A stretch of DNA of 64,000 bases from the NCBI GenBank assembly GCA_030324005.1, contig JARDVH010000121.1, forward strand, positions 10,776,295 to 10,840,294. Reading direction: 5' to 3'. This stretch comes from Negaprion brevirostris. Its lineage: Eukaryota. The notes under the pieces were generated by a model. The model saw nothing but the letters and a program-made list of their open reading frames with translations, was not told the origin of the DNA and did not search any database. The translations under genes and the position numbers were made by a program. Below, one piece after another: positions 2,792-64,000 of the stretch; the first letter of the stretch is position 1; every line of letters starts with the position of its first letter.

Positions 2792-2818
2792 ATGAAGAAT
2801 TGCGGAAAAAGAAAGCAG
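2792..2818 (+). CDS. 27-nt microexon (D)EELRKKKA
   Basis: ttccctcttactggcag|ATGAAGAATTGCGGAAAAAGAAAGCAG|gtaaag. Confidence 0.85.
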
Positions 2819-5800
2819 GTAAAGTTCTTAGGAATAGTATGTTTTTTGTGGTATTGGAGTAAATTGTAGAACAAGCCAAATCAGAGTGGCAATTTTGATG
2901 TGCCAATTGACTTGATGTATCACTGACGTCCAGCTCTAATTAAGATCCAGATGTTTATTGCCAGCTCCCTTTATTTTTAGTGAATTTCCACTGGATAGAC
3001 ACAATGTCAATTTTTGGAAAAAATCACTATTGCTGTTTCACTTGCAAACAATGTAAACCATTCACACTTCGCACTTTTACTATCTGATACTTTCATTATT
3101 ACAAGAAAAACTGGATAGTGTGGGTTCAACTTTTCTGGACAATCTAGAGGACGTTGGATGACTTCATCAATTCTTTTAAGTTTACAATGGTGTTTGGCAA
3201 AGTAGCCAGCAAATGATCCTTCCATTGTTAGAGATTAAAATGAGTGGTCGGTAATAATATTTACTAACAAACACAGGAAATAATTCAGCGACACGACTTT
3301 ATTTTGCTGTGAGTGGTTAGAATAATGGACTTGTTACAAAAAGTGGCAATTGAGGTGAATGAGATTATGGCTTTATGGAGCAGCAAAATATATAGATGAG
3401 AGAGAAACGAATGTAAGTATGTGCTTNNNNNNNNNNNNNNNNNNNNNNNNNNNNNNNNNNNNNNNNNNNNNNNNNNNNNNNNNNNNNNNNNNNNNNNNNN
3501 NNNNNNNNNNNNNNNNNNNNNNNNNNNNNNNNNNNNNNNNNNNNNNNNNNNNNNNNNNNNNNNNNNNNNNNNNNNNNNNNNNNNNNNNNNNNNNNNNNNN
3601 NNNNNNNNNNNNNNNNNNCTGGTTTCCATTGGGCATGCTACATCCTCAACAGCATACCCGAACAGGTGCCAGAGAGTGGCACCGAGGGGTTTTTCACATT
3701 CATCAATTGTAGTGTTAATACACTCCTATTTATGACACTAATAAGTAAAGTCAAACTTAGTATGGCCACAATCAGTTGGACCGAATGTCATGGTTTTCCA
3801 CCTTGAATTACATGCCAACCGACGTAGCACACATATCCTGCACCTTGCCTTGTAGACGCAATGGATCTAGCACTGCTCCTCTTCAAGTTCCAGCTCTCCA
3901 TATCATGAAAACTTTAACCGATGTTTTAAACATTATTTTCGTTGCAGAGGTAACAGCTCTGCAGAAGAAAATACATGATTTAGGTAAGGGATCACTTCAA
4001 CTATCGCTTTGTCTCAATAAGTCTGCATCCCGTTTGCCTTGACTGCAACATAAACAACAACAGCTTGTTTTTGTATAGCACATTATCAAAGCAGAGCATC
4101 CTAAGGGGCGCCAGAGTCCAGTTGTCAATTCAAAGCAATAATATTGTACAACAGCAAGCGAACAGCATATCAAGTTGCAAAAGTTTTATAAAAGAATTGG
4201 GCTTTACGCTTTGTTTTAGATAGAAGCAGTGAAAAATCTGAATGTGATGAGAAAAAATGGCATGCAAAAGGGCAGAATTCTGTTTCATAGCGAGTTGTTC
4301 CACTGGAGAACAAAAAAGACGGATAGGGAATTTTGCTACAGATTGGTAAGCATATGACAAAGTGATGAATGGCAATTCGTATCAGCTAGAGTAGCAGCAT
4401 GGAAAGAACATAAGAACATAAGAAATAGGAGCAGGAGTAGGCCATCTAGCACCTCGAGCCTGCCCCGCCATTCAATAAGGTCACGGCTGATCTGTAAGTG
4501 GTTCAGTTCCACTTACCCGCCTGCTCCCCATAACCCTTAATTCCCNNNNNNNNNNNNNNNNNNNNNNNNNNNNNNNNNNNNNNNNNNNNNNNNNNNNNNN
4601 NNNNNNNNNNNNNNNNNNNNNNNNNNNNNNNNNNNNNNNNNNNNNAGTGGTTCAGTTCCACTTACCCGCCTGCTCCCCATAACCCTTAATTCCCCTATTG
4701 ATCAGAAATCTATCTACCTGTGGCTTAAACATACTCAACGAGGTAGCGTCCACTGCTTCAATGGGCAGAGAATTCCAGATATTCAGTACCCTCTGAGAGA
4801 AGAAGTTCCTCCTCAACTCTATTCTAAACTGACTCCCCCTTATTTTGAGGCTTTGTCCTCTAGTTCTTGTTTCCGTTCTAAGTGGAAAAAATCTCTCTGC
4901 TTCTAACCTATCTAGCCCCTTCATTATCTTATAAGTCTCTATAAGATCACCCCTCAGCCTTCTAAACTCCAACGAGCACAGGCCCAATCTACTCAATCTC
5001 TCCTCATATGCTCACCCCCTTATCTCCGGTATCAACCTGGTGAACCTTCTCTGCACTCCCTCCAAGGCCAATATATCCTTTTGCAAATAAGAAATATATC
5101 CTTTCGCAAATAAGGAAGCCAGGATTAGCTCTGGTCTCAACAATGAAACTTCGAAATCAGATCAGGAGAGTATTGGATTAGCCTTGACAGGCATGCATGG
5201 GTATTACAATTACAGCTGAACTGTTGTAGTGGGAGTTACTACTTCATGGAATGTAAGCGTCTTTTCATAACATGTTGCACAACTGATGTCCCTTTGTTTA
5301 TGCTTTTTATTTTGCTGTTTTAAATGACCTTCCGTTCCTCTTTCTGATCAGATGAAAGAGTGAATCGAAATGGCAAAGGTAAGCTCAGACAGCAGCGTTG
5401 GTGAAGACCTCCGCCCCCACCAATGTACTATAATGTCCTTCGTAGAAAGGTTGTGTGTTCTTGCTAGCACAACTGCAAATGGAAATTGAAACAATGGTCA
5501 CCTTCATAAGATAATAGTGAAAGTAAGAGCAAATATGATAGTGTTAGCGCGAGTGGGTGAAACGACCACTACGGACTCAGGGTGAAGTTCAATAACAGCA
5601 CAGCTTTATTTTCTTTGCGTCGACGGAGAAGTACAGTCAGGACGTACAATCGGACTGCCCCTAAAGTGCTCTAAAGACTCCCCCACAAGGGGCTACAGTT
5701 ATACCTGAACTTCGCGTTTCAAATGCTAATCCTTTAATTACAGTGTTTGACTTCAGCCATCCTGTTTCGATGTTTTCGAGTGTTGGAGCAATTGTTTTAA

Positions 5801-8800
5801 GTGTGTGTTAATCGTTTNNNNNNNNNNNNNNNNNNNNNNNNNNNNNNNNNNNNNNNNNNNNNNNNNNNNNNNNNNNNNNNNNNNNNNNNNNNNNNNNNNN
5901 NNNNNNNNNNNNNNNNNCCAATTTCCCTTATGTGCCAGCCCTCATTTGCATTCTAAAAGCATGCTCTTGCCTACTGATCAGTGTCTGTTACTTTATGATT
6001 TTAGTGGAGGGCTCTGAGGATAGCTTTAGTTTGCTTCCATTTTGTCTGCCCAATTTCATAAAATTTGTTGTCCGATAACAATAGTGACCTTATCCCCACT
6101 TCCCTGACTACTCACCACCCACTACCCCATATGCAGACCCTCTCCACCCACCCCACCCCCCGGCCCTCCCCCTACCCCACTCCCAGACCCAACGCCACCA
6201 GTGAGCCCCAGATCTAAGTTTGGTCAACAATGATCTAACTCCGCTTGGAAATTATCCAGTAAGCAGTCCCCGCTGATCTCTGTGGAAAACATTTCCAAGA
6301 AATACAGACCTACTGAGATAAGGCAGTCTTCCCCATTTCCGATTTAAGCGGGAGACCTTTCATTTCACTCTGTCCCAAACGCCCAAAGCTCGCCCACGAC
6401 TTGGGAGCGTTCATATTGCCAAGCCGCGTCTGAAAGTTCTGCTTCATAAAAATACAATTTTATCGTGTTCATCTCCAATGAGCAAAGGCCCCATGCTCAT
6501 TATTTCCTCATAAGGCAAGTTCTTCATCCCAAAATATGAATCCTATTGAAATGTCTAGGGATTGTTTATAAAGCCTGTCCAGGTATGAACTGTAAACAGA
6601 AGCAAATTTTAAGTATAAAATGAAACATAGCTGGGGGCAGTCAATTAAGCGCATAGTCCATTATACTCTACAATCATTTTAAAATAGGAAAACCTTCATA
6701 TTGTGCTCAGTTTGTGGCCTTGGAAATCCACTATCCAGTTGTAAAATTCCCCGACTGTCCCTCTTCCCACTTTGCATTTCAACACCTCGGCCAAAAATAC
6801 CCACATTCCATTATGTTTCCAAATAACAATACGTAATTGCATATTGTGTTGGATGATTCATGTACCAGGACACCCATTTCTCTCTGTACTGAGCATGCAG
6901 CTGTCGCTTTCCATTAAGTAATGTTCCTTATTTTTCGTCCTTCCTTTCTTAAGCTGTGTTGTCATATTTTGGTTCTTCCAACTGGCTCAGTCCTTTCTCA
7001 AGCACCTCGGATTGTTTTTCTTTTGCAAACTTTAAGCAATATATCCACATTCTCTCTTTATGATCACAGGACGCACGTTTTCAGATCCTTGCTAAGTTTC
7101 GAAATTAACTCACTTCGTTTTTCTAGTTGTCCTTGTTTTTCCTCTCTAGTAACAGTAGCTATCCTTATGTCATTTGAGCATTGATTTTTGAAGATATCTG
7201 AGATGCTTTGTACATCATCTACCGTGAAGGCAGAAACAAAATCTTAAATAAAACAATGTTTCGTTTCCAGGCTTCTCATTATCAATTCTCGAATTTCGAC
7301 CTGTGATGGACAAATGGATAATCTACCTGATCTCCTATTGTTAATATGTTTGCAGAAATTTCTTGCAATTACATATTAAATACCAGGATTTTTTTCATGC
7401 GCTAATTTCTCCATCTGTTTTTCTTTCTCACTTACCCCTTGCAGGATTATATTGTATCCCACATATCCGGGATTCCTCTGTTCTTTCCAACATTAATTAT
7501 ATTTTACGTCAATTTGATACCAGCCTTTACTTTTTTATTTATCCATAGATGATGCATCATTCTCGCAGCATCTTTCTTACTCGAAAGAATGTACATATGT
7601 TCAGAGTAATTAAATGTCTCCTTAAATGCCCATAGCTGCGTTCATTCCTTCACAGTTTCAAAATGTGCATCAAGTCCACGCTGAAGCCCAAGGCATTAGT
7701 GTCAGACCGCATCATCTCGCCCTCAAACTGAACGTGCATTCTATCATGTTTTCATAACAGTTGCATAGAGAATCAATTATTTTGAGGTCACCAAACAATC
7801 CTGCCGCATTACATATTAAAAACGCCGAGACAGCCTGTTAGACAGTTGGTACCAGGCAGTATCACTCTATGAAGGCGTCCTGAATGCAACCTATGAACTC
7901 AACCGACATGCTGCGTTAACCAATTTCATTCTTGGATCTACATGAGGTTTGATATCTACAATGGATGTTGCATTGCCTTTTGTACAGGCCTCCCGCGTTT
8001 TTTAAACTTATTTTTGTCCTACTTTAGTAAGCAAGATGCGATACTTCCATGAAGTAACGTATATCTTTTCTAATCCTTATTGCCATGAAAACGCATTCTA
8101 CATTTTGATCCTCCGAAATTAGGTCTGTTCTGATCTTATCCGTTATTAACTGCGAAACTCTACGCTTCTTGAAGTGCCATAAGCTCCTGAATATCATGGT
8201 CTCAGCCGGTTTCACTGAGCAACAGCGCACCTGTAATTATGTTCACCTCATCTTCGCTTATATGCACCTGAGCAAGCAATTTGCGCATGTTATCGCGAAC
8301 ATTGCGTATATTCATACAGCATCCCTCTGGTTCCCTGAGCTGTTATGTTTAACCCTGCCGCCAGTCACGAAACACAGCTTCTGGATTGAGTCTTTGGGCT
8401 GCAAAACTCTATCCTTTTAAATGTACTGTTTACTACTACAGTTGCGTTCCGCTCTTACTCCCACGTTTGATCGGTTCCGTGCGCCATGGTGCTGTGCTCA
8501 GTTTATGCAAAGCCCTTGTCGCTTCGCCCTCAAGCCCGCAAGGCCTAATAACCTGCATCCTTTTGCACAATTTCAAGCGCTGCAGATCCCACATTCCTAA
8601 CGTTGATAATCCTATGTCCACTTATTTTATAATCGCTCAGCCCTGTCAGACCACAGTTGAAAGCTCAAGTACTAAGCCTAAGAGTGTGACAGTCTCCTGC
8701 AANNNNNNNNNNNNNNNNNNNNNNNNNNNNNNNNNNNNNNNNNNNNNNNNNNNNNNNNNNNNNNNNNNNNNNNNNNNNNNNNNNNNNNNNNNNNNNNNNN

Positions 8801-11800
8801 NNTCAATATAATTCTTATCGGACAACAAATTTTATGAAATTGGGCACACAATATGGAAGCAGGCTAAAATTACACTCAGAGCCTCTCCACCAAAAATCAC
8901 AAAGTAACAGACAAAGATTAGCAGGCAAGAGCATGCTTTTAGAATGAAAATGAGGGCTAGCACACAAGGGAAGCTGGACAGGATGGCACCTACATGAACT
9001 AAATTAAAAAACACATCCCCACCCCACCAAATCAACACTTCCAAACCAGTCAAACAACCTATGGAGATACCTAAAAATTAACATAGCTAAGGAAACGTCC
9101 CTGGCCCCTCAAACTCTTCGAGATCCATCACATACCCACTGTACAAACCCCAGAGATCCTAGACCAGTAATAACCAATCAGACAAAAACAATTAACACAC
9201 ACTTAAAACAATCGTTCTAACACTCGAAAACATCGAGACAGGATGGCTGAAGTCGAATACTGTAAATAAAGTGTTAGCATTTGAATCGCATACTACACCG
9301 AAGTTCAAGTATAACTATAGCCAGTTGCGGCGGACCTTTAGAGTGCTTTCGGGACAGTCCGATTGTATGTCCTGACTGCACCCCCGTCGACGTAAAAGGA
9401 AATAAAGCTGCGCCGTTATTGAACCCTGAGTCCGCAGTGGTCGTTTCGCCCACTCGCGCTAACAATAACTAATTAATTTCCAAGTTTAGAAATAACAGTG
9501 AACAATTGCCTGTACTGTAGCAATCGTTTTCTGTATTGGATTCAATTTCAATGTCAGAATCAACTCAGTTCCTTTCATGAGTTACACTTTGTCACGCAAT
9601 GAACTGTTGCTGGGACAGGAGGCACTGAAGGACTTCCAGCAAACATCCAATTCATTCATCAAACATACATCTCTGCCTCAAATAAAGTTAATGGCATTAC
9701 AATGACATCAGAGCCAACGATAATTGCAGAGTCAATTGTACTGAACTCGTATGAAATCTAAAGGTACGAGCCAAGCTTACAGGAAATACTTAAATATTTA
9801 TCTATTTCTGTTTAAATGGAGCCTGAGACGAGAACTAACTAGAGAAGCCAAGTCTCCTTTTTAAAACTACAGCAAATGTTCTCGATAAAAGCAAGGCCAC
9901 ATCTGTAGGAAACGATTGTGAATGGATCAGAGANNNNNNNNNNNNAATGACAACGTGGCTGACAGAAGAATAATATGTAATTCGCACAGCAAGCTGTAAC
10001 ACTGCAAGTACGTGCTTTCAACTAATCGAGCCGCTGAAAGCGTAACAGGTTGACATGGACATTTTTCAAGCGCGATTACCCTAGCCCTGACCTGCGGCAC
10101 CACTGCAATCACATCTTAGACTGGGAAGAACTGCGTGTGACGACATTGATGACATGCTTTTCAAATGAAAGACCTTGGAAACAGCTTGAAATCCTACACT
10201 GTAGCAGCGCTAGCCTGATGGTAAGATCGCTGAACTATTAATGTAGTAAACGCACTTAATGTCCTGGACCCGCGATCAAATCCCAGTACAGCAGCCAGTG
10301 GAGTTTCAATTCAATAAAGAACATCAGGGATTAACCGTTTGCTGATAACATGAAGCCATTGCTGAGTGTTGGGAACCCTCATCTAATTCACTGATAGATT
10401 TGGCGGGAGTACAGAAACGTTTTACCAGGATGTTGCATGTTATGAATGATATTAACTATGAAGAGAGATTGAATAATCTGGGATTGTTCTCTCTAGAAAG
10501 ACGAAGGTTGACGGGCGACTTGATAGAAATTTATAAAATTATAGGAGGCATGGATAAAGTGAACAGTAGCAAGCTTTTCCCCAAGGCAGAAATGACAATT
10601 ATAAGGGGACTCAAGCTCAATGTAAGGGGGGAAAGCTTCAATACGGATACGCGGGAGACTTTTTTTACCAGAGGGTGCTGGGGGTGTGAAATGCTCTGCC
10701 AGCTGACATGCTTGAGGCCGACATGTTAGCGACATGTAACACTTAACTGGATAGACAGGCAGGGTACAGAGGGATACAGGCGGTTGGTCTAGAAAGAACA
10801 ATGTCATCTGTGCAGGCTTGGTGAGCTGACATCACATGTGCTTCAATTGCACATCAATTGCAGTACTTGTGCTGTAATGTGTTTTTGCTCTCCGTTCTAA
10901 TGTCCCTTTTGGAAGGAAACCTGCCGTCGTTGCCGGCTTTGGTTCGCATGTGGCTCCAAATCCACAGCAATGTGGTTGATTCTCAACTAGGGATGGGCAA
11001 TAAATGCTCTCCAATAAAACTCTCCATTCACCTGACGAAGAGGGGATCCCCTCGAAAGCTTGTGAGTTTACTGTGAAATAAATCGGTTGGACTAAAACCT
11101 GGTGTTGTCAGACTTTTTACTTTGTTTACCCCAGTCCAACGCCGGCATATCCACATCAATAAATGGTGGCCAGCCAGTAACGCCCACGAGCACCACGTGT
11201 AATCTTACATGATTGAGCCGTTTAATTGTTTTTAATACGGGTTTGAGACCGTCGTGAAGGCAAAACTACCATCCCCAGCAATTGCGTTTTCAGAAATATA
11301 TTTTGCCCATTCTACCTGAAATCGGTACATCTATTTCCACGCAGTGGAAGTGCGTGGAAATAACGATATACTTGTTTCATGTTATACTTAATGAGCATTT
11401 TCCCACATCAATAACTTTCGAACAAATTATTATTTCAATTCACCAAAGTGTTTTCCTAATCGTAGTGATTCTCGAATAGAAACGGAAAATGCTGGATGAA
11501 CTTAACACGTTGTTTAGCATCTGTGGAGAGAAACTGAGTTAATCTTTCGAGTGCTTATGATGCTGCAAGTTTGAAGAGGGAGAGATATGTGATAGATTAG
11601 ATAATTGGACGAGGGGTGGACAGAATGGAATGGCGCTGATTGGTCTGAGCTCAGAAGAGGTTGGCAAAGATGCCATAGGTTTTTAAGGTGCCATTGAGGA
11701 CTGAAGAGCGTTAATAGTGGCAGAAATGGGAGAAAGTGTAAACATAAGAACAAAGTTCAGTGCTAGCATTGCTATTCGTGCAATAAGACCTTCCAAATTT

Positions 11801-53800: not shown

Positions 53801-56800
53801 CTGCATTCCTTCCTTCTTTCTGTCATTTTTCAGTGATACTCCTCTGCACTTCTGCAATCCATTCACTATTCCTTCTTTATCGTTCTTCCTCTCTCTTTTT
53901 GCCTTATTTTTCTTTTACTCCTTCAAGTTATGACGTGCTAACATAACTGTTTTCTTTTATTGTAGAAATATCAAACCTGAAAGCAAGTCTGCAAGACGCA
54001 GGTCAATGGAACCATTTTTGACTGTCTTTAATCTCAAAGGCACAGTAGCCGCTTACTGTAATGGATAGACATGATGCTTCAAATGCCTCACTTATAAGGA
54101 TGGCATGAACAGTCAAGTCTTGTATTCCCTTCGTATGGACAATTAAGAGGCGAGCTAATTGAGACCCACTATAAATCGATAATGTCATCTCTCATGGAGA
54201 GAAACTGCAGAGAACTGCAACACAAAGGGACTTGGGGTACTTGTACAGGAAACAGACAAAACGATCATGCAGGTGCAACAGTAATCAGGAATGCGACTGG
54301 AATGTTAGCCCTTTGTCCCAAAGCTATTGGAGTTTAAGAGTAGGAAAGTCCTGCTGTAACTTTACAATTTACTGGCTGGATTACACTATGAGTTGTTTTG
54401 TTCCCCATTTTTAAGGACAAATATTAATTCATCAGAGACAGTTTAGCACATGTTCACAGGAATGATCATTGGAATGGACGGATAGCTTACACTGAAATGT
54501 TAAACAGGTTGGGGTCCATTTATTGGATTTTTACAAGAATGTGCGGCGATCTCGCTGAAACAAATGGGATTTTTAAGAGGCTTGAAAGGGCAAATGCTGA
54601 CAGGATGTTCCTCCTTACGGGAGAGTCTAGGAAAGGGAGGAGAGTCTCAGAATAGAGAATCAGAATGAGCTGAGAAGGAATTTCTTCTCTCACAGGTCTC
54701 TGAGTCTTTGGAAATCCTTGCCAGACAGAGTTGTAGCGAGTACAGTTTATTTTCTGTACATTTAAGTTTGGGACAGATAGATTTTTTAACAGTAATGGAT
54801 TCAAGTGTTACTGGGAAAGGGCAGGAAAATAGTCATGAGGAAAGTCGGATCAGCAATGGTTCTGTTGAATAGCAGAACAGACTCAAATTCCGAACGGCTT
54901 AATCCTGTTCCTATTTATTTTGACATTGTGAAATGCATACAATGGAATTTCGGTAGGTGATTTTAAGTCTCTGATATTGCAGGATAGCTTTCCAATAGCA
55001 AAGGAAGTGTGGTCGACAGGATATTTATTTCGGTGGAGCATGTTACTTATTAATAAAAAAAATGTCCTGAACAAAGCAGGTCCTTATGCACTCCAGTATA
55101 TTCCATTTGGGTACTAACTTGTCATTGCCTTGAATTGACCTAAACTTACTCCGGAAAATCTTGAAAGTCTAAAGATAACAACTTAAAGGGAAAAAGTCCC
55201 TATGCTGACACAGCATCGTACTAAAGGACGTGCAATATGTTTCCGAGTTAGAAAAATACTTCAGAAATATATTTACCACTGAAATACTCAACAAGTGTGA
55301 ATACCAGAAATTGAGTTCTGACCAATGATAATTGCTTGCAATGTTGGCACTTCTGGGGTGTAAATGCCACGACACGAAGGAGACTTCACATGAAATTCGA
55401 GTCAAGTTGTGGGACCCTTGGCGTCTCTCCCGAAACGGACATCGGGCCTTGTTTAATCTCTCACCTGAAAGACAGGACCTCGAACAATTAATAATTAACA
55501 TTAATAATTCCAATCTGGAATATTTTCTCAGGTATATGGAATGAGACACCAGAGCACAATCCTCTCACTCAGAGTCCGTCGTGGTCTCAACTTTGAGAAA
55601 GAAAAGCCATCGTTATTCTCACATATGCAAAATTCCAGTAGTTTATTGAAATGTTCCTTCCAACTGTTTGACCACGTTTCATCTTGGAAATTATTTGAAA
55701 TAAATTGTGATTTTTTTTCATAATCAGTTTGTGCCGTGATGAAGTCCTTGAAGGCAGAGGACATTTAAAGTCGGAACTAGAGGTTGCGTAGCATTCCTGG
55801 TTGGAATTGAATTGCACATTCCGTTTTCAAAAAAAAATCTTAATTTTCCATCCTTTTCCAGAAGAAGAAATTAGTAGGAAAGACAAAGGTAAAGATCAGC
55901 CAACTGCGATGTGGGACATGAGTGGGAAATTGTGTCGATATCAGTTCTCGAACTCGCAAATATTAATCCCATTGACGATCATGGAGTTGAATATCAGTAC
56001 GTGTAGAGAATGGGAAATAGTAGTGATGTCGCCTGTTTTGCCTCCACATTGAAAATTGATTTTAAGTTAATGGAGAACCGTTGAATCATAATTTCGATTG
56101 CATTGTTGAGTTCTTTCCTGCAATGTTATTAGGACGGCAATGATCCTTTTTCATTCATTTGTACGAGTTAGGCGTCAGTGGTTTGCCAGCATTTATTAGC
56201 AATACCTAACTCACTTCAACTAAGTGACTTGCACTCACAGAGCATTTCAGAAAACAGCTGAGAGTCAAACGCATTGCTATGGCTCCGGAGTCAAATATAG
56301 GGTAAGGACGGCAGATTTCCCTTCCTAAAGGACGTTAGTAAATCAAATGAGTTTTTGCGCCAATCGGTAGTAGTTTCATGGTCATCGGCGCATTCTTAAT
56401 TCCACATTTTTTTATTGAATTCAAATTGCGCCACCGGCCGTGGCGGGATTCGTACTCTGGGCCACAGATCATTAGCTGAGCTTTTGGATTGATAGTCCAG
56501 CGATAATAAGACTAGGTTATTACCTTCACATATAGTGGCAGTGAATAGTCGGAGAAAGCTGCTCATGAAAACCCCGACCCATTTACCCCTGAAAGTAGCC
56601 CCCTGCCTACTACAGTTGTTCTGTTTCTGCATTTAGATTTACTCATTCCTGAAAGAACCAGCAGCCTTCCCATACACTAATAATTGAGTAAACTGGAATA
56701 CAATCGACATCTTCGCTGCTAAAAATAGACTGAATTACCTATGGCCCTTCATTCGATGTAGCCACATCGAACCAATTAGTAGATATTCCGACGAATGTGA

Positions 56801-59800
56801 ACTTTCCTTCGTTCCTCGCGCACGATATGACACATGGAGTTCAATAGAAGTGAGTGACAGACGCGGGATGTAACAAAGCTTAAAGAAGATCCAAACTACG
56901 GCCTCATTTGCAAGTGGAGACAACAGTGAGGGTGGGGTGGGGGGGGGGCTCGTGTGAGGGGACCTCTACAGGCGGAACGTGCGAAAATTGTTGGAGTTGC
57001 TTTCCGATGTATGGTACAATATTAATTTAAATTGGCCAAGGAAAGCAACGTCTGATGCGGATTATTAAGGGGTGATTCACGATCAAGTGATCACTTTCTA
57101 TGCTGCACTGACAATGCATTCCATCTCCTGCCTCTATATANNNNNNNNNNNNNNNNNNNNNNNNNNNNNNNNNNNNNNNNNNNNNNNNNNNNNNNNNNNN
57201 NNNNNNNNNNNNNNNNNNNNNNNNNNNNNNNNNNNNNNNNNNNNNNNNNNNNNNNNNNNNNNNNNNNNNNNNNNNNNNNNNNNNNNNNNNNNNNNNNNNN
57301 NNNNNNNNNNNNNNNNNNNNNNNNNNNNNNNNNNNNNNNNNNNNNNNNNNNNNNNNATCTCACGAGAATTGGTGGTGTGGTAAATAGCGAGGTGGAAAAC
57401 CTTAGATGGCATGCTAATATAGACGAGTTGAACAACAGGTCAGAACATTGGTCGATGCAGATTAACCCTGACGAACCTGTGATGATGCATTTTGGGAGGA
57501 GCAATAAGACAACGGAATACATAATGAAAGACAGGATGTTGGGAAGTGCAGAGATGCAGAAGATTGCATGTCCAATGACCCCTGAAGACAGCAGGGCATA
57601 AGGATTAGGTGATTAAGAAGGCATATAGGATAATTTCCTTCATCAGCCAAGGCATGAATTTTAAGAGTAGGGAGTTTACGATGCAGCTGTATAAAATAGT
57701 TGTGACGCGCGGCTTAGCAGTAGGTGGCCAGTTTTTTTTTGTACAATATACAAAAACACAAGCATTGAAGCAAGAGGAGTCCACCAGACCTTCAAGCCTG
57801 CCCTGACATTCAATACGACCTTGACTGATCTATGCTGGTCTCAGTTTATTTTCTACCCGACTTCCCCAACGCCCTCCGTTCCTTGATCTATCAAACATTC
57901 ATCTACCTCCATTTTAAATACTTCAAATGTTCGAGCCTCCAATATCCTTCGGAGCAGTGACTTACCAGCCTCTACGTGAAGAAATGTATATGTATCCCAG
58001 TTTTAAATGGCCAGCCCATTATCTTGTAGCTGCCCCCTTGTTCAAGACTCTCTTACTAGTGAAACCATATCATCATATATCTTGCAAAAACCCCTCATAT
58101 GTTTGGCTAAGATCACCTCTCACGCTGCAAAACTCCAAGGAATACAAGCCCACACACTTCAGTCTCTCTTCATAATACTCTTCGTCTAGATTGCTATGAG
58201 GAATATGAACTCACTGCGTGACAGTAGCAGACAGAGAACCAATCAAATTGTTGAAAAGGTGTATGGATTGTGAAGAGCGCAGATGAGATTTACAAGAATA
58301 GGTCCAAGGATGAGAAACTTCAGCCCTGAAGATAAATTATAAGGGATGGCACTGTTCTCTTGGAGACAAGGAGGCCAGGAGCAGACTTGTTAGAGAAGTT
58401 CAAATTCATGAGGGAATTGGACAGAAAAGATGGCGGAAAATCCTTCCAAGTCACAAAATGATAAAGAACGAGAAGGACACAATTAACGTGATTTGCAAAA
58501 AAAAGCAATGTGAGACAAATACTTCTATACGCAATGAATGGCTTAGACCTGCAATGCCCTTCTTTGCAAGAATGGTGGAGATAGCTTTAATTGAGGAATT
58601 CAAGAGCGCAATAGGTGATTATTTAAAGAGAAAAAATGTGCAGGGGTGCCAGAAAAAGGCAAGGACATTAAGTCATTGCGCTTATTTGGCTAGCTGGTGT
58701 GGACATGATGTGAAAACTGTATTTCTTCTGCGGCACAGTAATTCTGTGGTTCAATGGTATGCAGCTGATGTACAGCTACAGACCACATTCTGGAAAGTGA
58801 GGTTAGGTTGTGTTTTACAAATGGCGAAGACACAACCAGCTAAGTGGTCTCATTCTATGCTTTCTATGATGTGAAAAAACGCAATACCCTAAATGACCAA
58901 CTATTGTCTCATCTCAGAGCGCAGCCAAACAAATGCTTTTGAAGGTTGGTCAGTATTGCAATAGTCAATAGCACACAGCTTCATTGCAAAGGCACGAATG
59001 ACAGAAGTGTCAAAAAATCAATTGGTTTCTTTCATGATAATATCTGTGCAATAGACATTGTCCCAGGACACCGGTCTGTCGCCTTGCTTTGCTTTCAATT
59101 TTTGGCTGTGGAACTTCCGCATCCAGCTGAGACAGAAACTTAAGTTTGTCTCTTATCTTGCTCCAGAAGGAGTACAGCTAAGGTTCTCGACGTTGATACC
59201 TGTGACAGCATGAGAGACTGAGCCAGTTCAGTTTGGATTCATTGGAGTTGAAAGAAGTGGGAGGCGTCTCATAGAAATGTACAAATTTCGAACAGGGTTA
59301 GACAGGGTAGATTCAGAAAGGATGCTCCCGATGGTGGGGGAGTCCGGAGTAGCGGTCACAGCTTGAGAATGAGGGGATAAACCTTTTAGAACTGAGGTGA
59401 GGAGAAAGTTGTTCACCTAGAGAATCGTGAATGTGTGGAAATTAGCAGCACGGAAAGTAGGTGAGGCCAAAATATTGTGTGATGTCAATAAGAAATTACA
59501 ATATATAGCTCTCGGGGCTAGATGAATCAAGGGATATTGGAGGGGGCGGGGGAGCCAAGATATTGAATTTGATGATCAGCCATGATCATAATGAACGTTG
59601 GAACAAGATCGGTGGGCCCAACGGCCTCCTACTGTTTCCAGTTTCTACGTTTCCAGCAAAAGAAAGACACGATCATTCATTCAATACTCAGTCACCAATG
59701 AGTGTTCAAACTTTAGTATGTATGTGCATGCCTGGCATGGTGTTCGGGCCTGTTCTGTTCAGAGGACAATCCACTTCAGCATTATTTATATTTAATTTTC

Positions 59801-62173
59801 AGAGCTGGAGAAACAAAAAGCCGTTCTGGAAACTACAGGTCAGTGGAATGTCCTGGCTCCAAATATTGATGCTGGAAAGGACATGCTCCCCGTTTCTCCA
59901 TTTGCCATTGGCTCAGTGAATTGTGATTCTGTTGTAGGCAGAAGCAAGAGAAGAGTGATTTTCTTCAATTTAAAGTATTGACAGAAAGAAATCGCTATGT
60001 ATCCCACTGAAATTTCACACTGTGTCTCCCTCCTTTGGAATCCTGCAACAAGTATCTTTATGCTGCACCCTAGTGCCAATTTCCTCGTGAATGCACTACA
60101 ACTAGCTATTCTTGATCGTTAACTTTCATTGCAACAGCTTTTGAATTGGCATCGTGTACACGATAGAAAGAATAGAAATTTCATCTGCCAAATTATTGGG
60201 AATACTGAAGACTTTTGCCTTCAATCTTCAACATTGCCCGTTTCTTCATCATGGAGTCCATTCCTCTCCGGAACGACTTCTTGGGCTTCGAAAACGTGGC
60301 TCCAGATTTGACCATATGTTCAACTTTTGAAACCAAAATCGGCTTGATCGCCAGTATTATTTCACTCAACTTAGTGCCTTTGTTATTTAGAAATTTGATT
60401 ATTCCAATGTTCTTCTGGGCAAGGTACAATTATTCAAACACGTCTCACGTCATCAGTGCTAAATCACCAAAACACAGGCCCAGTTTCTCAACAGATATAA
60501 ATTCCCTTCATCCATCACTCCTGAGCTTATTGATCTGCTTAGGCTTCTGCGATTACAAAAAATCAATAGAAAATTTTGNNNNNNNNNNNNNNNNNNNNNN
60601 NNNNNNNNNNNNNNNNNNNNNNNNNNNNNNNNNNNNNNNNNNTGTAATCTTTCTGTGGTTTTCAAATACCAGCTTCGTGTGTGTCCACGGTGCGATCGCT
60701 GTATTTGTCTGCTCTCCCTCCTCATCTTCCTTCTGTTCTTGTCTATCTCTTTCTTATTTTTTCTATTATATTGATTTGCAAGTCCGTGTCTATTTCTGTC
60801 GTTCTTGTTACTTTTGCTATCACTTTGTTCTCCTCCTCTGCTTACATTCCCTTCACCATAAACTCGTTTTATTCCTTGTTTCTGACGTCATTCTCAATTT
60901 TGCTCTCGTCTGCCTTCTGCTTCAATCAATTGTACCATTAATCGTGACAATTTATTTCAGAAAACAGTGTGAAAGAAAAGGTTAAAGGTAAGTGTAAAGC
61001 ACCGTGTTCCCTTACTAAAGTCAGCAGAAGGGATGTTTCCTGATAACGAACTGTATTGTCAAGAACCACATAGAATAATGTGGGATAAGATACACCAAAG
61101 AATCAGAGCTGTCAGAGCAGGTAAGAATGGAGTCATTGAGATGTACAGAACAGAAAGAGGCCTTTCGGCCCAACACATCAATGCTGGTCAGGTTTCAAAA
61201 GCTGAACTAGTCCCATTTACCATGGTCCATATTCTCCCTACCATTTCCTATCCATCTGCCTATCCTACATTGAATTTTGTAACTTTACCCCCTTGTCTGG
61301 CAGTTCATTCCATAAAAGCACTGCGCTCTGTGTGAAATAATTGCGCTCAGATCCCTTTTATATATTTCCTCTTTCACATTTAACCAATGCCATCTAGTTT
61401 TAAACTCCCCTATTCTGGGCAATGTACCTTGTAAGAAATCTCACAACACCATGTTAAAATCCAACAAGTTTATTTGGTAGTAAACGTCACAAGCTTTCTG
61501 GGCTCTGCCACTCACCTGACTAAGGGACAGAGCCCCAAAAGCTTGTGACGTTTACTACCAAATAAACCTGTTGGACTTCAACCTGGTGTTGTGAGACGTC
61601 TTACTGTGTTTACCCCAGTCCAAAGCCAGCANNNNNNNNNNNNNNNNNNNNNNNNNNNNNNNNNNNNNNNNNNNNNNNNNNNNNNNNNNNNNNNNNNNNN
61701 NNNNNNNNNNNNNNNNNNNNNNNNNNNNNNNNNNNNNNNNNNNNNNNNNNNNNNNNNNNNNNNNNNNNNNNNNNNNNNNNNNNNNNNNNNNNNNNNNNNN
61801 NNNNNNNNNNNNNNNNNNNNNNNNNNNNNNNNNNNNNNNNNNNNNNNNNNNNNNNNNTTCCTCATATGGCTAGCCTCCGTTTTCGGTGAGGGGCAACTCA
61901 TCTCAACAGCTACTCCACACAATGAACTCCAAACCTTATATTCACAACACATCTTTCAGTGAAAACGTTTCTTCGGAACGACCTTGTGAAATAAAGATCT
62001 TCTTCACGAGTGAAAACAGTGTTACTGTGTATTCTACTCAAAGCGTTCGTCACTTTCGAGCCACCCTCATGCTCCTTTTTATTTCATTGGCAGCCCACAT
62101 GCCAAAATAACGAAAATTTTCTTTGCTTTTGCTACAGAAACAGATAAGTTGAAGAAGCGTCTTCTGGACGCAG
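2792..62173 (+). CDS. Partial multi-exon gene: coiled-coil protein encoded by alternating 27/36-nt phase-1 microexons (5' and 3' ends outside window)
   Basis: 21 exons with pyrimidine tract+AG and G|GT donors. Spliced translation: DEELRKKKA EVTALQKKIHDL DERVNRNGK EMLKQKTNLSEA EEQLQIKTK GMEDLKISLGEA ESKLSSKIK EIQKMKEAFFEF DTKVESKEK EVGKIRNQLLDC [gap] ALEKAKKEIFDI EAKLTSKTK ELENEKNDAFDG EQRILKKDK VIGKLKESIAEL EQKFENRDR EISNLKASLQDA EEEISRKDK ELEKQKAVLETT ENSVKEKVK ETDKLKKRLLDA. No stops; clear heptad periodicity. Confidence 0.9.
3948..3983 (+). CDS. 36-nt microexon (E)VTALQKKIHDL
   Basis: attttcgttgcag|AGGTAACA...GATTTAG|gtaagg. Confidence 0.88.
4405..5091 (-). mobile_element. CR1-type LINE 3' fragment
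   Basis: ORF 4652-4996 reads LGLCSLEFRRLRGDLIETYKIMKGLDR (CR1 ORF2 C-terminus); tail CCTACTCCTGCTCCTATTTCTTATGTTCTTATGTTCTT. Confidence 0.9.
5352..5378 (+). CDS. 27-nt microexon (D)ERVNRNGK
   Basis: ttcctctttctgatcag|ATGAAAGA...GGCAAAG|gtaagc. Confidence 0.85.
5542..6080 (-). mobile_element. Solo LTR, copy 1
   Basis: TGTTA...TAACA termini, perfect 4-bp TSD ATAG on both sides, AATAAA on the minus strand; homologous to 8813-9464. Confidence 0.8.
8813..9464 (+). mobile_element. Solo LTR, copy 2 (inverted relative to copy 1)
   Basis: Reverse-complement match to 5542-6080 at both ends (tcttatcggacaacaaattttatgaaattgggc ... cactcgcgctaaca); flanks ATAAT/ATAAC. Confidence 0.75.
10400..10830 (+). 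mobile_element. CR1-type LINE 3' fragment
   Basis: VQKRFTRML...[29 protein letters not shown]. Confidence 0.85.
11021..11158 (+). mobile_element. Penelope-like short repeat with hammerhead-like core
   Basis: CTGACGA-a-GAGGGG-at-CCCCTC-GAAAGCTT followed by aataaatcggttggactaaaacctggtgttgt; related copies at 13921-14052 and 61510-61630. Confidence 0.6.
12880..13500 (+). mobile_element. Degraded CR1-type LINE 3' fragment
   Basis: RRLSRLIPEMRDEFYKERLGSL...KPRTRSH; 3' tail cctaatcctgctcct. Confidence 0.75.
13921..14052 (+). mobile_element. Penelope-like short repeat, second copy
   Basis: Clear similarity to 11021-11158; CTGACGA...GAAAGCT. Confidence 0.6.
14160..14195 (+). CDS. 36-nt microexon (E)MLKQKTNLSEA
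   Basis: ctgctcctttcag|AGATGCTT...GAGGCAG|gtaaga. Confidence 0.88.
15285..15311 (+). CDS. 27-nt microexon (E)EQLQIKTK
   Basis: gttgctatctttag|AAGAACAG...ACAAAGG|gtaagg. Confidence 0.85.
15650..16520 (+). mobile_element. Degraded LINE ORF2 fragment (CR1/L2-like)
   Basis: KNKAEAIAKIFNQK motif and downstream RT-proximal remnants broken by stops; boundaries approximate. Confidence 0.55.
16696..16996. repeat. Degenerate 15-bp minisatellite, about 20 units, open on both strands
   Basis: Units such as ctggatggtgaaaca, ccggaaggcctaaca, tcagaaggcataacc, ccagaaggtgataga; + strand (P/L)EGxT, - strand GVMPS-like. Confidence 0.8.
18366..18401 (+). CDS. 36-nt microexon (G)MEDLKISLGEA
   Basis: long pyrimidine tract...gttag|GAATGGAA...GAAGCAG|gtaatt. 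Confidence 0.88.
18850..19065 (-). mobile_element. HE1-like shark SINE, 3' part
   Basis: ggcccatcgagtctgcaccg...ggggcaatttttagcatggccaatc...cacatctttgg, shared with other SINE copies in the window. Confidence 0.7.
19220..20478 (+). mobile_element. CR1-type LINE with ORF1 (Zn finger + SGNH esterase remnants), internally deleted
   Basis: Cys-rich start, then VRGIDRHF, LPVP...FKFLGHWNRF, endonuclease remnant VESIWVEL...GVVYRPPNS, then the 3' tail directly. Confidence 0.75.
21229..21395 (-). mobile_element. tRNA-derived (HE1-like) SINE, 5' part
   Basis: ggactgtgggaggaaaccggagcacccggaggaaacccacgcagacacg; B-box-like GGTTCAATTCC on the minus strand. Confidence 0.8.
22150..22950 (+). mobile_element. 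Degraded CR1-type LINE 3' fragment
   Basis: YAKRLSKFVIYSLEFGRM; tail ttcttgtgttcttatgt. Confidence 0.65.
23006..23032 (+). CDS. 27-nt microexon (E)SKLSSKIK
   Basis: tgtttcttttag|AATCTAAG...ATTAAAG|gtacta. Confidence 0.82.
24380..25490 (+). mobile_element. CR1-type LINE fragments including RT C-terminus
   Basis: FADDTKVAGVVESVEGCQKLQRDIGRMQDWAEKWQMDFNPDKC; LQLYRTLVRPHL. Confidence 0.9.
26082..26345 (-). mobile_element. CR1-type LINE fragment (gapped)
   Basis: HLEKNGLIEQTQHGFVKGK and an AAGAACATAAGAAATAGGAGCAGGAG tail. Confidence 0.8.
26827..26862 (+). CDS. 36-nt microexon (E)IQKMKEAFFEF
   Basis: tactttctttccag|AAATCCAA...GAATTTG|gtaagt. Confidence 0.88.
27405..27810 (+). mobile_element. 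tRNA-derived SINE
   Basis: gtctgtgggagtctgcacattctccccgtgcttgcgtgggttttctccg, same family as 21229-21395. Confidence 0.75.
28942..28968 (+). CDS. 27-nt microexon (D)TKVESKEK
   Basis: cccacatgccatcag|ACACGAAA...GAGAAAG|gtaagg (weaker pyrimidine tract). Confidence 0.8.
31484..31519 (+). CDS. 36-nt microexon (E)VGKIRNQLLDC
   Basis: caccttctcactcaag|AAGTGGGA...GATTGCG|gtaagt. Confidence 0.85.
32255..32780 (-). mobile_element. SINE with internal ~52-bp tandem expansion
   Basis: About 6 degenerate copies of cacctaacctgcacatctttggacactaa..ggacaat..agcatggccaat. Confidence 0.7.
33592..33654. repeat. (CT)n(GT)n microsatellite
   Basis: Directly visible. Confidence 0.95.
34810..35160 (-). mobile_element. 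CR1-type LINE 3' end (gapped)
   Basis: FKSRVDRFLTDKEIKGYG; aacataagaaataggagcaggagtaggcc tail. Confidence 0.8.
36129..36276 (-). mobile_element. CR1-type LINE 3' UTR
   Basis: (gtaagaac)n taggagcaggagtaggccatc. Confidence 0.7.
36857..36892 (+). CDS. 36-nt microexon (A)LEKAKKEIFDI
   Basis: attttccaatag|CATTGGAA...GATATTG|gtgagt; first residue assumes the upstream exon ends in G. Confidence 0.87.
39094..39120 (+). CDS. 27-nt microexon (E)AKLTSKTK
   Basis: cacttttctctccag|AAGCAAAG...ACCAAAG|gtgaga. Confidence 0.88.
40120..40430 (-). mobile_element. Degraded SINE
   Basis: tttggactgtggaaggaaacctggagc...ctccacacagtcacccaaggcc. Confidence 0.7.
43151..43186 (+). CDS. 36-nt microexon (E)LENEKNDAFDG
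   Basis: attttctacag|AATTGGAA...GACGGTG|gtgagt. Confidence 0.85.
43826..44290 (-). mobile_element. CR1-type LINE 3' fragment
   Basis: Closely similar to 4405-5091. Confidence 0.88.
45400..47850 (-). mobile_element. Degraded LINE (CR1/L2-like) interrupted by a + strand CR1 whose 3' end is at 46747-46820
   Basis: Repeat-like motifs on both sides of the gap; CR1 tail ttcttatgttcttatgttctta near 46800; boundaries approximate. Confidence 0.5.
48580..48885 (-). mobile_element. SINE
   Basis: ggggagaacgtacaaacgccacacagacag...aattgaacac...caccatgccgcc. Confidence 0.7.
50045..50071 (+). CDS. 27-nt microexon (E)QRILKKDK
   Basis: gattcttttag|AACAAAGA...GACAAAG|gtaagt. Confidence 0.88.
52762..52980. 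repeat. Degenerate (TATG)n/(TCTA)n microsatellite
   Basis: Directly visible. Confidence 0.85.
53006..53041 (+). CDS. 36-nt microexon (V)IGKLKESIAEL
   Basis: ttttctgttttag|TCATAGGA...GAATTGG|gtgagg. Confidence 0.87.
53339..53365 (+). CDS. 27-nt microexon (E)QKFENRDR
   Basis: tgctccctccag|AACAAAAA...GACAGAG|gtgagg. Confidence 0.87.
53685..53920. repeat. Degenerate (TTCC)n polypyrimidine microsatellite
   Basis: Directly visible. Confidence 0.9.
53966..54001 (+). CDS. 36-nt microexon (E)ISNLKASLQDA
   Basis: ttcttttattgtag|AAATATCA...GACGCAG|gtcaat. Confidence 0.85.
54150..54920 (+). mobile_element. Degraded CR1-type LINE 3' fragment
   Basis: gagagtctaggaaaggg...agaaggaatttcttctctcacagg...tcctgttcctatt tail. 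Confidence 0.7.
55862..55888 (+). CDS. 27-nt microexon (E)EEISRKDK
   Basis: catccttttccag|AAGAAGAA...GACAAAG|gtaaag. Confidence 0.87.
56150..56540 (-). mobile_element. SINE-like repeat family (related copies near 10200, 21400, 36300, 50250, 62365)
   Basis: Shared blocks gtaaggacggcagatttccc, ttgaattcaaatt...gggattcg, ccagcatttatt. Confidence 0.55.
57357..58750. mobile_element. Cluster of degraded CR1 fragments (+ 57357-57740, - 57760-58180, + 58230-58750)
   Basis: WSMQINPDEPVMMHFGRSN; IKKAYRIISFISQGMNFKSRE; EEFKSAIGDYLKRKNVQG. Confidence 0.7.
59215..59650 (+). mobile_element. CR1-type LINE 3' fragment
   Basis: cattggagttgaaagaagtgggaggcgtctcatagaaatgtacaaa...ggcctcctactgtttccagtttcta. Confidence 0.75.
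59803..59838 (+). CDS. 36-nt microexon (E)LEKQKAVLETT
   Basis: tttaattttcag|AGCTGGAG...ACTACAG|gtcagt. Confidence 0.85.
60961..60987 (+). CDS. 27-nt microexon (E)NSVKEKVK
   Basis: aatttatttcag|AAAACAGT...GTTAAAG|gtaagt. Confidence 0.87.
61431..61630. mobile_element. Penelope-like inverted repeat (hairpin) element
   Basis: Arms ~61431-61507 and ~61523-61604 are reverse complements; same family as 11021-11158. Confidence 0.7.
62138..62173 (+). CDS. 36-nt microexon (E)TDKLKKRLLDA
   Basis: ttgcttttgctacag|AAACAGAT...GACGCAG|gtaaat. Confidence 0.88.
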
Positions 62174-63879
62174 GTAAATGGCAAATACTGGTTAGGGGTG
62201 TATTTGGAAACTCAGCTTCAGTAAAGCATTGTCTTCCAAGTGAAAAGTGTGNNNNNNNNNNAGGACCAAGCAACATTTTGTTAATAACGTATTGTTTATT
62301 CAATTCAAGGAAATGGGGACCATATGGGGACGTACAGTTGTGCAACATGCTGCATAAATGGGACAAAGTGTGGCCTAGTGGTAATGTCACTGAACTAGTC
62401 ATCAAGTGGTTAAGACTAATACGAGTTCAAGAGGTTGTTAATTCGGTTAAGAAAATCCACAATGGAAAGCTAGTCTCAGTAGTAGAAACCGTGGTCATTT
62501 CACTGATTGTCGTAAAAAAACATCCATCTGATTCACTATTGTCCGTTAGAGTAGTAGATCTGTCACCCATCGCTGGTCTCGTCTCCATGCGACTCCAGAT
62601 CTGTACCAATGCGAGTGCAGTATTACTGCCCTCTAAAGTTGTCCAGTAAGCCAGACTGTGTTAAGGCAATTACGGATTCACAAGAAATAATGACTTTGTC
62701 GGTGGTGCCCAAGACCCATGAAATAATCAAGAGCAAAAATATCAAAAATCGTTCACGTGACTCAAAATAGAGTCCAGCAACCGCACACAGAATTAAAACC
62801 TAACATTTCTACTCCTCGTTGTCATCGGTAACCCAATCTGCAACAGAGCAACACAGTTGCACAAATTTCACTTCGCCCCCAACACTGCCCAAACGATGAA
62901 ACTCTGAAAAGATAAATGTGGAATATATTCATTGGCGAAGATTCACCATCGCTTCACACTCGGAAGACACACATCCTCTTCAGGCAAACATACATCTGCT
63001 ACGATATCGAGTACGGGTTCAAATGTCCTGGTAAACGAGCATTACGCCACTGCAGCAACAGCTTCAATAGAAGACGGTTCGAAGCAAAGTTATGACATAG
63101 TTATTACATCTGGCGTTATGCACCTCGCTAAATCGTATCAACTTGAATAGAAGTTAATATGGAGGTGCTGACTAACTCTTGTTTATGCGATCCCACAGCT
63201 GTTACAGATCAGTCAACTTAGCTCTCTACTGACAAGGACAGAAGCAAAACCTGAATCTAGAGAGATGTCAACAAGAACGCAACAAGAATCTTGGGCATTC
63301 ATTGCTCCCAGTGCGGTCTCTGCTACATCGAGTAGTGTGGAGATTAAGCGCTGCTTGGGTGACTGCTTTGTGGAATAACTGCGAACTACCTGCAAACAGG
63401 GCGTGAGTGTTCCTGTCCCTTGCGACCTCATCTCAATATCTTGCTCTCACGCTCCTTTGAAGTCCAATGCAAACTGTAGTAGCAGCCCATACATATTCCG
63501 ATTGCGCATGTTACAATCTGTAATTCTGAAAATTCAGTTCCAGAACTTTCGAATGTGACTATTCTCCTCAAATTTGACCCCCTTTTCTCGAAGATCTTTT
63601 TTTTCCAACGCAACATCCTTGCACCCATCCTTCCCTCTCTCCAGCTGGGTCATTTGCCCCTTCTTCTTTGTGTCTGCTCTCACTGAGCACTCAGCTTTAC
63701 TTTTAATGAACATATTATGTTATCATATCTCAATGTCCCATAAGAACTTTCTATACCTCTTCACACAATGAATAACACCACCGCTGTGTCGTACGCTTCG
63801 CATTCTCTATTCGCTCCCACCCAACACTAACCTTCTACACTTCTCCATCTGCTGCACCCACCCGTTGTTCACACCAAAC

Positions 63880-63990
63880 GCTCTAACTTCAGCTCTGACG
63901 AAGAATCACATTCTCTCGAAATGTTAATTCTGCTGTTCTCTCCACAGATGCCGCCAGACTAGCTGAGTTGTTCTAGCATCTTCGGTTTTC
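63880..63990 (+). mobile_element. Penelope-like terminal repeat with hammerhead-like core
   Basis: CTGACGA-agaatcacattctctc-GAAA-tgttaattc followed by tctctccacagatgccgccagactagctgag; degraded reverse copies near 1300, 11480, 12420, 45100. Confidence 0.6.
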
Positions 63991-64000
63991 ACATGTAGCA

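Follow-up and report, generated by a model that had tools for sequence, protein, structure and literature searches.

Structure of the locus

The window, a stretch of 64,000 nucleotides of Negaprion brevirostris contig JARDVH010000121.1 (C121), carries 21 phase-1 microexons on its + strand between positions 2792 and 62173, ten of 27 nt and eleven of 36 nt, as defined by refined splice-site scans (Table 1). All 21 are bordered by AG and GT and are phase 1-1, and they total 666 nt (222 codons, or 31.7 heptads) within a span of 59,382 nt. They form part of what is likely a far larger gene, termed here gene A, whose microexon array continues on both sides of the window and is followed by an exon encoding a B30.2 domain.

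An AG..GT scan of segments of 12-60 nt, made with no reading-frame filter, showed an excess of 27-nt and 36-nt lengths that was confined to the + strand, with six segments of 27 nt and nine of 36 nt on this strand versus one and none on the - strand. The two lengths alternate at 19 of the 20 window junctions (shuffle mean 10.5, p = 5e-5), and the only break, a 36/36 junction between 31519 and 36857, spans two N gaps. The sequenced part of this interval holds no 27-nt candidate scoring above 5.4, against an array-exon median of 18, and we infer that the missing 27-nt exon may be hidden in an assembly gap. With that one extra exon the window encodes 33.0 heptads, in agreement with the ~33 counted in the earlier note, which had also allowed for a predicted exon in the gap.

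When the window exons are joined, the phase-1 frame has no stops versus 14 and 21 in the other two frames, a comparison that is partly preselected, the exons having first been picked on splice signals and an open frame. For the 116 aa that follow the gap, the highest Fourier peak is a hydrophobic period of 3.5, of a height reached by none of 5,000 shuffles. In a held-out test, splice models trained on the window were run, again with no frame filter, outside the window within the same array, and returned 50 + strand candidates of 27 or 36 nt (41 upstream and nine downstream) versus five on the - strand; other lengths gave averages of 3.0 and 0.85 candidates per length. All 50 are open in the phase-1 frame, compared with 19/50 and 26/50 in the other frames. 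The array exons are diverged, with a median pairwise identity of 44-48%. The window's microexon array is real, and the long coiled coil of short phase-1 exons that had been proposed for this cartilaginous fish is supported. No IgV, TM or B30.2 exon was found within the 64,000-nt window, as had been noted before. The longest intron of the window contains a ~550-bp element twice in inverted orientation (5532-6082 and 8811-9474) with arms 87-89% complementary, and positions 61431-61604 hold 82-nt inverted arms around a 10-nt spacer, overlapping a dispersed repeat also present at 11061 and 13958.

Table 1. Microexons of the window, other features of gene A and chondrichthyan RefSeq models with a related B30.2 domain. 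Coordinates are those of the window, extended outward.
Feature	Position or accession	Strand	Basis or remark
27-nt phase-1 microexon	2792..2818	+	AG/GT scans
36-nt phase-1 microexon	3948..3983	+	AG/GT scans
27-nt microexon	5352..5378	+	AG/GT scans
36-nt microexon	14160..14195	+	AG/GT scans
27-nt microexon	15285..15311	+	AG/GT scans, refined
36-nt microexon	18366..18401	+	AG/GT scans
27-nt microexon, weak donor	23006..23032	+	AG/GT scans, refined
36-nt microexon	26827..26862	+	AG/GT scans
27-nt microexon	28942..28968	+	AG/GT scans, refined
36-nt microexon	31484..31519	+	AG/GT scans, refined
Two assembly gaps that may hide a 27-nt exon	32981-33573, 34985-35084	+	N runs
36-nt microexon	36857..36892	+	AG/GT scans
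27-nt microexon	39094..39120	+	AG/GT scans
36-nt microexon	43151..43186	+	AG/GT scans
27-nt microexon	50045..50071	+	AG/GT scans
36-nt microexon	53006..53041	+	AG/GT scans
27-nt microexon	53339..53365	+	AG/GT scans
36-nt microexon	53966..54001	+	AG/GT scans, refined
27-nt microexon	55862..55888	+	AG/GT scans
36-nt microexon	59803..59838	+	AG/GT scans, refined
27-nt microexon	60961..60987	+	AG/GT scans, refined
36-nt microexon	62138..62173	+	AG/GT scans
Gene A microexon array (contains the whole window, 1..64000)	-361,574 to +171,048	+	strict-cut-off catalogue
Gene A terminal B30.2 exon, phase 1, 173 aa + stop	+175,484 to +176,004	+	Pfam SPRY E 2e-15
Exon-free 53-kb interval expected to hold the gene A 5' end	-415.1 to -361.6 kb	+	6,929 N
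RefSeq model 'nuclear-pore anchor-like'	XP_042192744.1		same B30.2 clade, automatic name
RefSeq models 'TRIM39-like'	XP_038672306.1, XP_038668997.1		same B30.2 clade, automatic name
RefSeq models 'zinc-binding protein A33-like'	XP_069775384.1, XP_078422387.1		same B30.2 clade, automatic name
RefSeq model 'TRIM69-like'	XP_055510696.1 (Leucoraja)		same B30.2 clade, automatic name
RefSeq model 'TRIM58'	XP_042191566.1		same B30.2 clade, automatic name

The gene A array is followed by a B30.2 exon

We read 810 kb upstream and 200 kb downstream of the window, 1.07 Mb in all (12.7% N), of an assembly of 2.69 Gb; the position on C121 is the window coordinate plus 10,776,294. The cut-off of the exon catalogue was set at the score of the fifth-best minus-strand match. 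At this strict cut-off the gene A array comprises 114 exons, 66 of 27 nt and 48 of 36 nt, which extend over 533 kb (9.4% of the gene A span is N, with gap sizes nominal) and encode ~1,170 aa. A few short exons close the array before the terminal B30.2 exon, which sits 111 kb downstream of the window. A downstream PRY-SPRY/B30.2 exon was one of the two endings put forward in the earlier note, and with it in place the other, a lectin exon, falls away. The ~33 heptads counted there are greatly exceeded by the whole predicted rod of at least ~1,170 aa. No array exons were detected after the terminal exon out to +264 kb, nor in the 53-kb interval that precedes the array.

Over the whole of gene A the 27/36 alternation is seen at 81 of 113 junctions, so that the rod may be interrupted or exons may have been missed. 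Alignment of the 41 adjacent 36+27 pairs of gene A reveals a 21-residue unit with large hydrophobics at positions 1 (95%), 4 (80%), 8 (90%) and 15 (90%), Ala/Thr/Leu at position 11 and Lys/Arg at position 18 (78%), percentages that are inflated by selection with an exon-body profile; the window exons show the 3.5-residue period as well. The coil contains 3 Pro and 11 Cys in 1,169 aa, and N-glycosylation sequons are not enriched (6 versus 4.9 in shuffled sequences). Probable block duplication is suggested by cassette-like repeats, with 36-27-27 triplets close to the 5' end and at ~-163 to -94 kb, and by exon pairs in the array catalogue that are 78-85% identical. Intron flanks still align for only three exon pairs among 193 exons, all three in the neighboring gene B described below, and the duplications in gene A therefore look old.

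The B30.2 exon is intact in the DNA of a second organism, with 8 substitutions in 7 codons and no stop. In four DNA-like runs, which are uninformative on expression, contigs of this exon continue through the intron-exon border with no joint. The AlphaFold model of the domain is of low confidence (pLDDT 56); its listed PDB and Foldseek matches are all B30.2 domains, and a family profile finds its best solved-structure match in the B30.2 of BTN3A1 (112.6 bits versus 95.5 for TRIM21). We infer that the array would be spliced to the B30.2 exon in one mRNA. Possible synteny anchors in the downstream flank are a Myb/SANT-like gene (PF13873) at +198.7 kb and a DUF1619_N exon on the - strand at ~+250 kb, which we take to belong to the tectonic family.

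Paralogous arrays in the same genome

The region read contains just two B30.2 exons, each at the 3' end of an array. The second belongs to gene B, which contributes 79 further array exons on the + strand from -810 kb to -416 kb (within the region read) and a terminal B30.2 exon at ~-415.6 kb that is broken only by a 10-N placeholder. Genome-wide there are eight family B30.2 exons, six on C121 (6.2-10.95 Mb) and two on a second contig, C84, with microexon candidates upstream of each. The B30.2 of gene A has five close relatives in the genome (E 4.5e-42 to 8.7e-34, with the next B30.2 at 5.9e-26), and gene B and a member at C84:91.20 Mb complete the set of eight. The B30.2 exons of the paralogues share 66-75% identity with catshark RefSeq proteins, and in the case of the C84:93.46 Mb paralogue the predicted upstream exons line up, by inspection, with successive stretches of catshark XP_038672306.1. 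The 5' side of the C84 paralogue is bounded by a zinc-knuckle ORF at C84:93,579,463 (+) that resembles RBM4.

Sampling located a strand switch on C121 between gene B (+) and gene C (-), the latter of which ends at 8.85 Mb. The outermost detected 36-nt exons of the two genes, at 9,394,606 and 9,409,140, lie head to head 14.5 kb apart with 1,726 N between them, and spaced samples along the contig suggest lengths of ~950 kb for gene B and ~545 kb for gene C. In the DNA between the two genes, which has no repeat match within the regions read, an ATG with one further base and then a consensus donor, at C121:9,406,250 (-), might, speculatively, be a Met-only phase-1 first exon. Toward its 5' end gene B carries about eight 21-nt exon candidates in a row (C121:9,509,382-9,539,556, +), and gene C has repeated 45-nt and 24-nt exons (C121:9,339,827-9,360,244, -); the exon unit thus varies within the family. 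Gene B also contains two identical 27-nt exons, at -468,679 and -467,358, that lie 1.3 kb apart with flanks 89% identical and represent either a recent duplication of exon and intron or an assembly artefact.

A chondrichthyan family of predicted coil and B30.2 proteins

A profile search of 1.84 billion representatives, together with name look-ups, identified database homologues in Scyliorhinus, Cetorhinus, Narcine, Leucoraja and Callorhinchus. All eight homologues scanned have a SPRY domain (two with a weak PRY) and a coil, and no Ig, RING or B-box was detected in them; the Callorhinchus model XP_042192744.1 is a coil plus SPRY protein of 1,697 aa. The genomic family exons and the chondrichthyan RefSeq models form one clade apart from the sampled TRIM and butyrophilin B30.2s, with support of 100 (SH-aLRT) in a quick tree (17 of 46 rows, including all eight genomic exons) and 100/100 in an LG+G4 tree (10 of 28 rows, including six of the eight), which leaves out the partial B30.2 exons (gene B and 8.31 Mb), several family models and unnamed representatives. 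Because the profile was built from this genome's own paralogues, these are favored in the choice of in-group rows. Gene A has the family trait, a B30.2 of this clade preceded by a rod of phase-1 microexons. The occurrence of the family in chimaera, rays and sharks would place its origin before their split.

Isoforms X1 and X2 of catshark XP_038672306.1 differ by 9 aa, or 27 nt, which is consistent with skipping of a 27-nt exon in these automatic models, and short in-frame blocks likewise distinguish the isoforms within the Narcine and Callorhinchus sets. The start of the catshark model falls within a 9-aa repeat, and the automatic RefSeq models may be 5'-incomplete. A short hydrophobic stretch opens both Leucoraja XP_055510696.1 and Callorhinchus XP_042192744.1. 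The Leucoraja coil scores E 1.6e-5 with a profile of the 21-aa unit, and the long Callorhinchus model is absent among the 27 matches listed. A single-sequence search for longer homologues returned TRIM69 only, and a search centred on the Callorhinchus model returned just its own two versions. We found no description of the family in full-text literature, a search for which most subscription journals were outside the scope, nor in the passages of PMC11788884 available to us; supplements of genome papers could list such genes.

Search for the 5' end

Searches with tblastn and local profiles gave no IgV, IgC or RING/B-box match in the 1.07 Mb (12.7% N), and Pfam analysis of the 116 ORFs of at least 58 aa in the 53-kb interval gave one RVT_1 fragment, two weak sub-threshold matches and nothing relevant. 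As controls, the IgV profile recovered four of four held-out shark BTN V exons at E <= 2.5e-22, the TM-exon profile scored a held-out BTN TM exon at E 7e-14 (leave-one-out recovers three of five), and the RING/B-box profile found the TRIM exons of C84 at E 3e-59. The IgV profile gave nothing at E <= 1 in three 5' regions (gene A, B/C and C84:93.46 Mb). The 230 kb around the B/C strand switch, of which 46,077 bases (20%) are N, contain no notable Ig, RING/B-box or TM match (best E 0.07), and the 5' side of the C84:93.46 Mb paralogue likewise gave none as far as a neighboring gene ~53 kb past its first clear exon. Among the best candidates scored in genome-wide searches with V-set, BTN-type IgV and C2-set profiles, none lies at C121 3.7-11 Mb. 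The IgV and TM exons that the earlier note proposed to seek upstream were found neither in the 53 kb nor in the head-to-head interval of genes B and C, and the eight homologues have no Ig. With 9-20% of the searched DNA being N, the evidence leans toward absence of IgV and IgC exons from gene A.

One weak TM-profile match in the 53-kb interval, a hydrophobic ORF at -368.9 kb (E 0.003), was rejected as a TM exon since it has no splice sites. First-exon scans of the interval yielded about as many candidates as on the control strand, and a first exon holding only an ATG is hard to detect by such scans. The first detected exon of gene A is preceded by an in-frame ATG and 27 hydrophobic-rich codons at ~-361.66 kb, a stretch of a kind found at 2 of the 193 array exons.

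Proposed function and alternatives

We think it rather likely that gene A encodes a cytoplasmic coiled-coil rod of at least 1,170 aa with a C-terminal B30.2 head, probably with no Ig or TM segment, and that the 21 segments of the window are spliced into it. Each 36+27 pair would add three heptads, with hydrophobic residues at positions 1, 4, 8 and 15, a small or hydrophobic residue at 11 and Lys at 18 of the 21. Because every exon is a multiple of three and all share the same phase, the rod could grow by duplication of exons or cassettes and be shortened by skipping, in neither case with a frameshift. The rod would oligomerise as a parallel coiled coil, ~175 nm long if unbroken at 0.15 nm per residue, and the B30.2 heads would be held together at its C-terminal end as ligand binders. 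The portions of the literature available to us assign the B30.2 domain a general role in ligand binding (PMC8813856) and describe B30.2 domains mounted on a coil for recognising oligomers (PMC4455283). The protein may work as a long tether or avidity scaffold, like a BG or butyrophilin tail freed from the membrane, and by analogy our best guess is an innate-immune or epithelial cytoskeleton/trafficking role.

That the array consists of chance splice-like sites, repeat remnants or a dead gene, or belongs to a known coiled-coil gene such as triadin, is hardly credible. The exons are tiny and diverged, but the 50 of 50 held-out candidates open in one frame, the bias in strand and length, the alternation and the heptad period all speak against chance, and the B30.2 exon is intact in two organisms; the architecture of triadin does not end in a B30.2, and the ending of this array in one excludes it. 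A true butyrophilin- or BG-type membrane receptor whose cytoplasmic tail is extremely long, and whose exons for the signal, Ig and TM parts lie in gaps or far upstream, would account for an exon grammar equal to that of this genome's BTN tails and for the BTN3A1 match of the family profile, and assembly gaps do remain in gene A and in the 5' regions. We nonetheless regard it as improbable, given three independent 5' regions with no IgV, IgC or TM match, the absence of Ig from all eight homologues, the genome-wide Ig searches, whose best candidates include nothing at C121 3.7-11 Mb, the rejection of a clade joining the family to shark BTNs, and the below-shuffled match of the gene A 27-nt exons to BTN tails (both detailed below).

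Marginally less probable still is a short hydrophobic N-terminus, as signal peptide or anchor, which would make the protein a rod that is either secreted or anchored in the membrane, its B30.2 facing outward or lying in the cytosol, that is, an Ig-less receptor stalk. The ray and chimaera RefSeq models with hydrophobic N-termini would fit such a protein, as would the ATG and hydrophobic stretch at ~-361.66 kb and a bowfin model, XP_066577973.1, that combines TM, coil and B30.2. However, the -361.66 kb stretch is a post hoc observation and, as intron sequence would, spans a strong acceptor and a long tract of T, the first-exon candidates of the 53 kb are about as numerous as on the control strand, and sequons are not enriched. 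We also doubt, a little more strongly, that arrays A and B are transcribed together as a single unit of ~1.5 Mb in which either B30.2 exon can serve as the last, an arrangement that would deprive gene A of a separate 5' end and would itself be compatible with a rod plus B30.2. The two arrays share a strand, no first exon was identified in the 53 kb between them, and the last exon of B and the first of A are both phase 1, so that skipping the terminal exon of B would keep the frame. Against this, the outermost exons of A and B are of a similar 36-nt type after an exon-free zone, as in the separate gene C, their B30.2s do not pair as sisters in the quick tree, and an ATG-only first exon would escape the scans used.

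Extending the preferred reading, a cytoplasmic rod with a B30.2 head, to the paralogues is more tentative. Sharks, rays and chimaeras may carry an old, undescribed family of giant genes of 0.5 to ~1 Mb with 100-200+ microexons, encoding membrane-free rods of 175-300+ nm that bear a distinct clade of B30.2 and act as a length-variable intracellular recognition/tethering system, exon duplication setting the rod length and in-frame skipping adjusting it. Such a family would have been missed by gene annotation because nearly all of its exons are shorter than 40 bases. A microexon heptad tail with a B30.2 is already known; the family is visible in databases in fragments and is apparently undescribed. 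The locus points to a multi-megabase cartilaginous-fish gene cluster that annotation pipelines have caught only as pieces with misleading names (TRIM39-like, nuclear-pore anchor-like), extends several-fold the BG/butyrophilin way of assembling a coil out of microexons, is a natural case on which to test the splicing of >100 consecutive microexons, and may bear on the origin of 'orphan' proteins with a B30.2 and a heptad tail.

Comparison with known systems

Six BTN loci on C84 have IgV and/or IgC exons, a 120-nt TM exon, one to nine phase-1 exons mostly of 27 or 21 nt, and a B30.2; the gene at C84:98.90 Mb has nine 27-nt tail exons. These canonical genes and many PRY exons are on C84 rather than C121, as are two of the family members. 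Butyrophilins and BTNL proteins resemble gene A in having a run of short phase-1 heptad exons and then a single B30.2 exon, an arrangement given for the butyrophilin tail in the parts seen of PMC8813856 and PMC12841164, the latter of which, in those parts, treats only Ig-bearing BTNs in cartilaginous fish. They differ in having one to nine tail exons instead of >110 and in having Ig and TM exons, none of which were found in gene A, whose unit is 36+27 nt. The B30.2 of gene A lies in a clade separate from those of BTNs, and a single clade of the family with five shark BTN B30.2s is rejected (p-AU 0.007; LG+G4, 28 rows). When compared in register, the 66 27-nt exons of gene A match 24 shark BTN tail exons with a mean best score of 5.3, below the 8.3 of shuffles, which gives no support for deriving the main 27-nt class from BTN tail exons; a minority class does match them. 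Because the shark BTN B30.2s are themselves not one clade and are mixed with TRIMs in the 28-row tree, descent of the family from one BTN lineage would still be compatible with the trees.

The chicken BG genes, to which the locus had been likened, share with gene A a tandem multigene organization and a long coiled coil made from many tiny exons. According to the sections available, BG proteins have an IgV domain, a TM segment and a tail of 21-nt exons with no B30.2 (PMC4046983, PMC8813856), their coil is encoded by 13-36 exons of 21 or 24 nt, and a chicken zipper protein is presented as a BG tail in soluble form with an action on actin-myosin (both PMC4046983). Gene A has a 27/36-nt unit instead of 21 nt, three to eight times more exons and a B30.2. 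Runs of 21-nt exons, the BG length, do occur in gene B. BG identity is not supported for gene A since a B30.2 exon ends its array and its exons are of 27 and 36 nt, not 21 nt, and no match to a BG-type single IgV plus TM was found upstream, where gaps remain. What survives of the proposed BG/BTN-like nature is thus the butyrophilin-tail exon design with its B30.2, and what does not is the BG identity; the Ig and TM exons of a BTN were not found.

Stalks of CD23-like lectins use a 63-nt unit. This identity was rejected, as was a type II C-type lectin or SRCR stalk, since the terminal exon is a B30.2 with a stop codon. TRIM39, TRIM69, TRIM21 and TRIM7 share with gene A a coiled coil and a C-terminal B30.2 of the same fold, up to ~41% identical over the domain, but the gene A coil is a long microexon-encoded heptad rod, and no RING or B-box was found in the 1.07 Mb or in the eight homologues. 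TRIM membership is not supported on the latter ground, with gaps remaining. The chondrichthyan RefSeq models of Table 1 resemble gene A in their coil, their B30.2 of the same clade and their lack of RING, B-box and Ig, and differ in being mostly short and probably partial, with no clear gene A orthologue in the trees.

Guinea-pig enterophilins consist of a long heptad rod and a B30.2. They, by architecture alone, and the teleost long-coil plus B30.2 models are like gene A in lacking Ig and RING. The teleost group forms an ESM Atlas cluster of 137 members (score 0.92). A catfish protein, KAK3511214.1 (1,479 aa), has a long coil and two B30.2 domains, and its B30.2, like that of the bowfin model, falls outside the family clade. 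For enterophilin-1, the portion seen of PMC13749957 gives a role in trafficking with SNX1.
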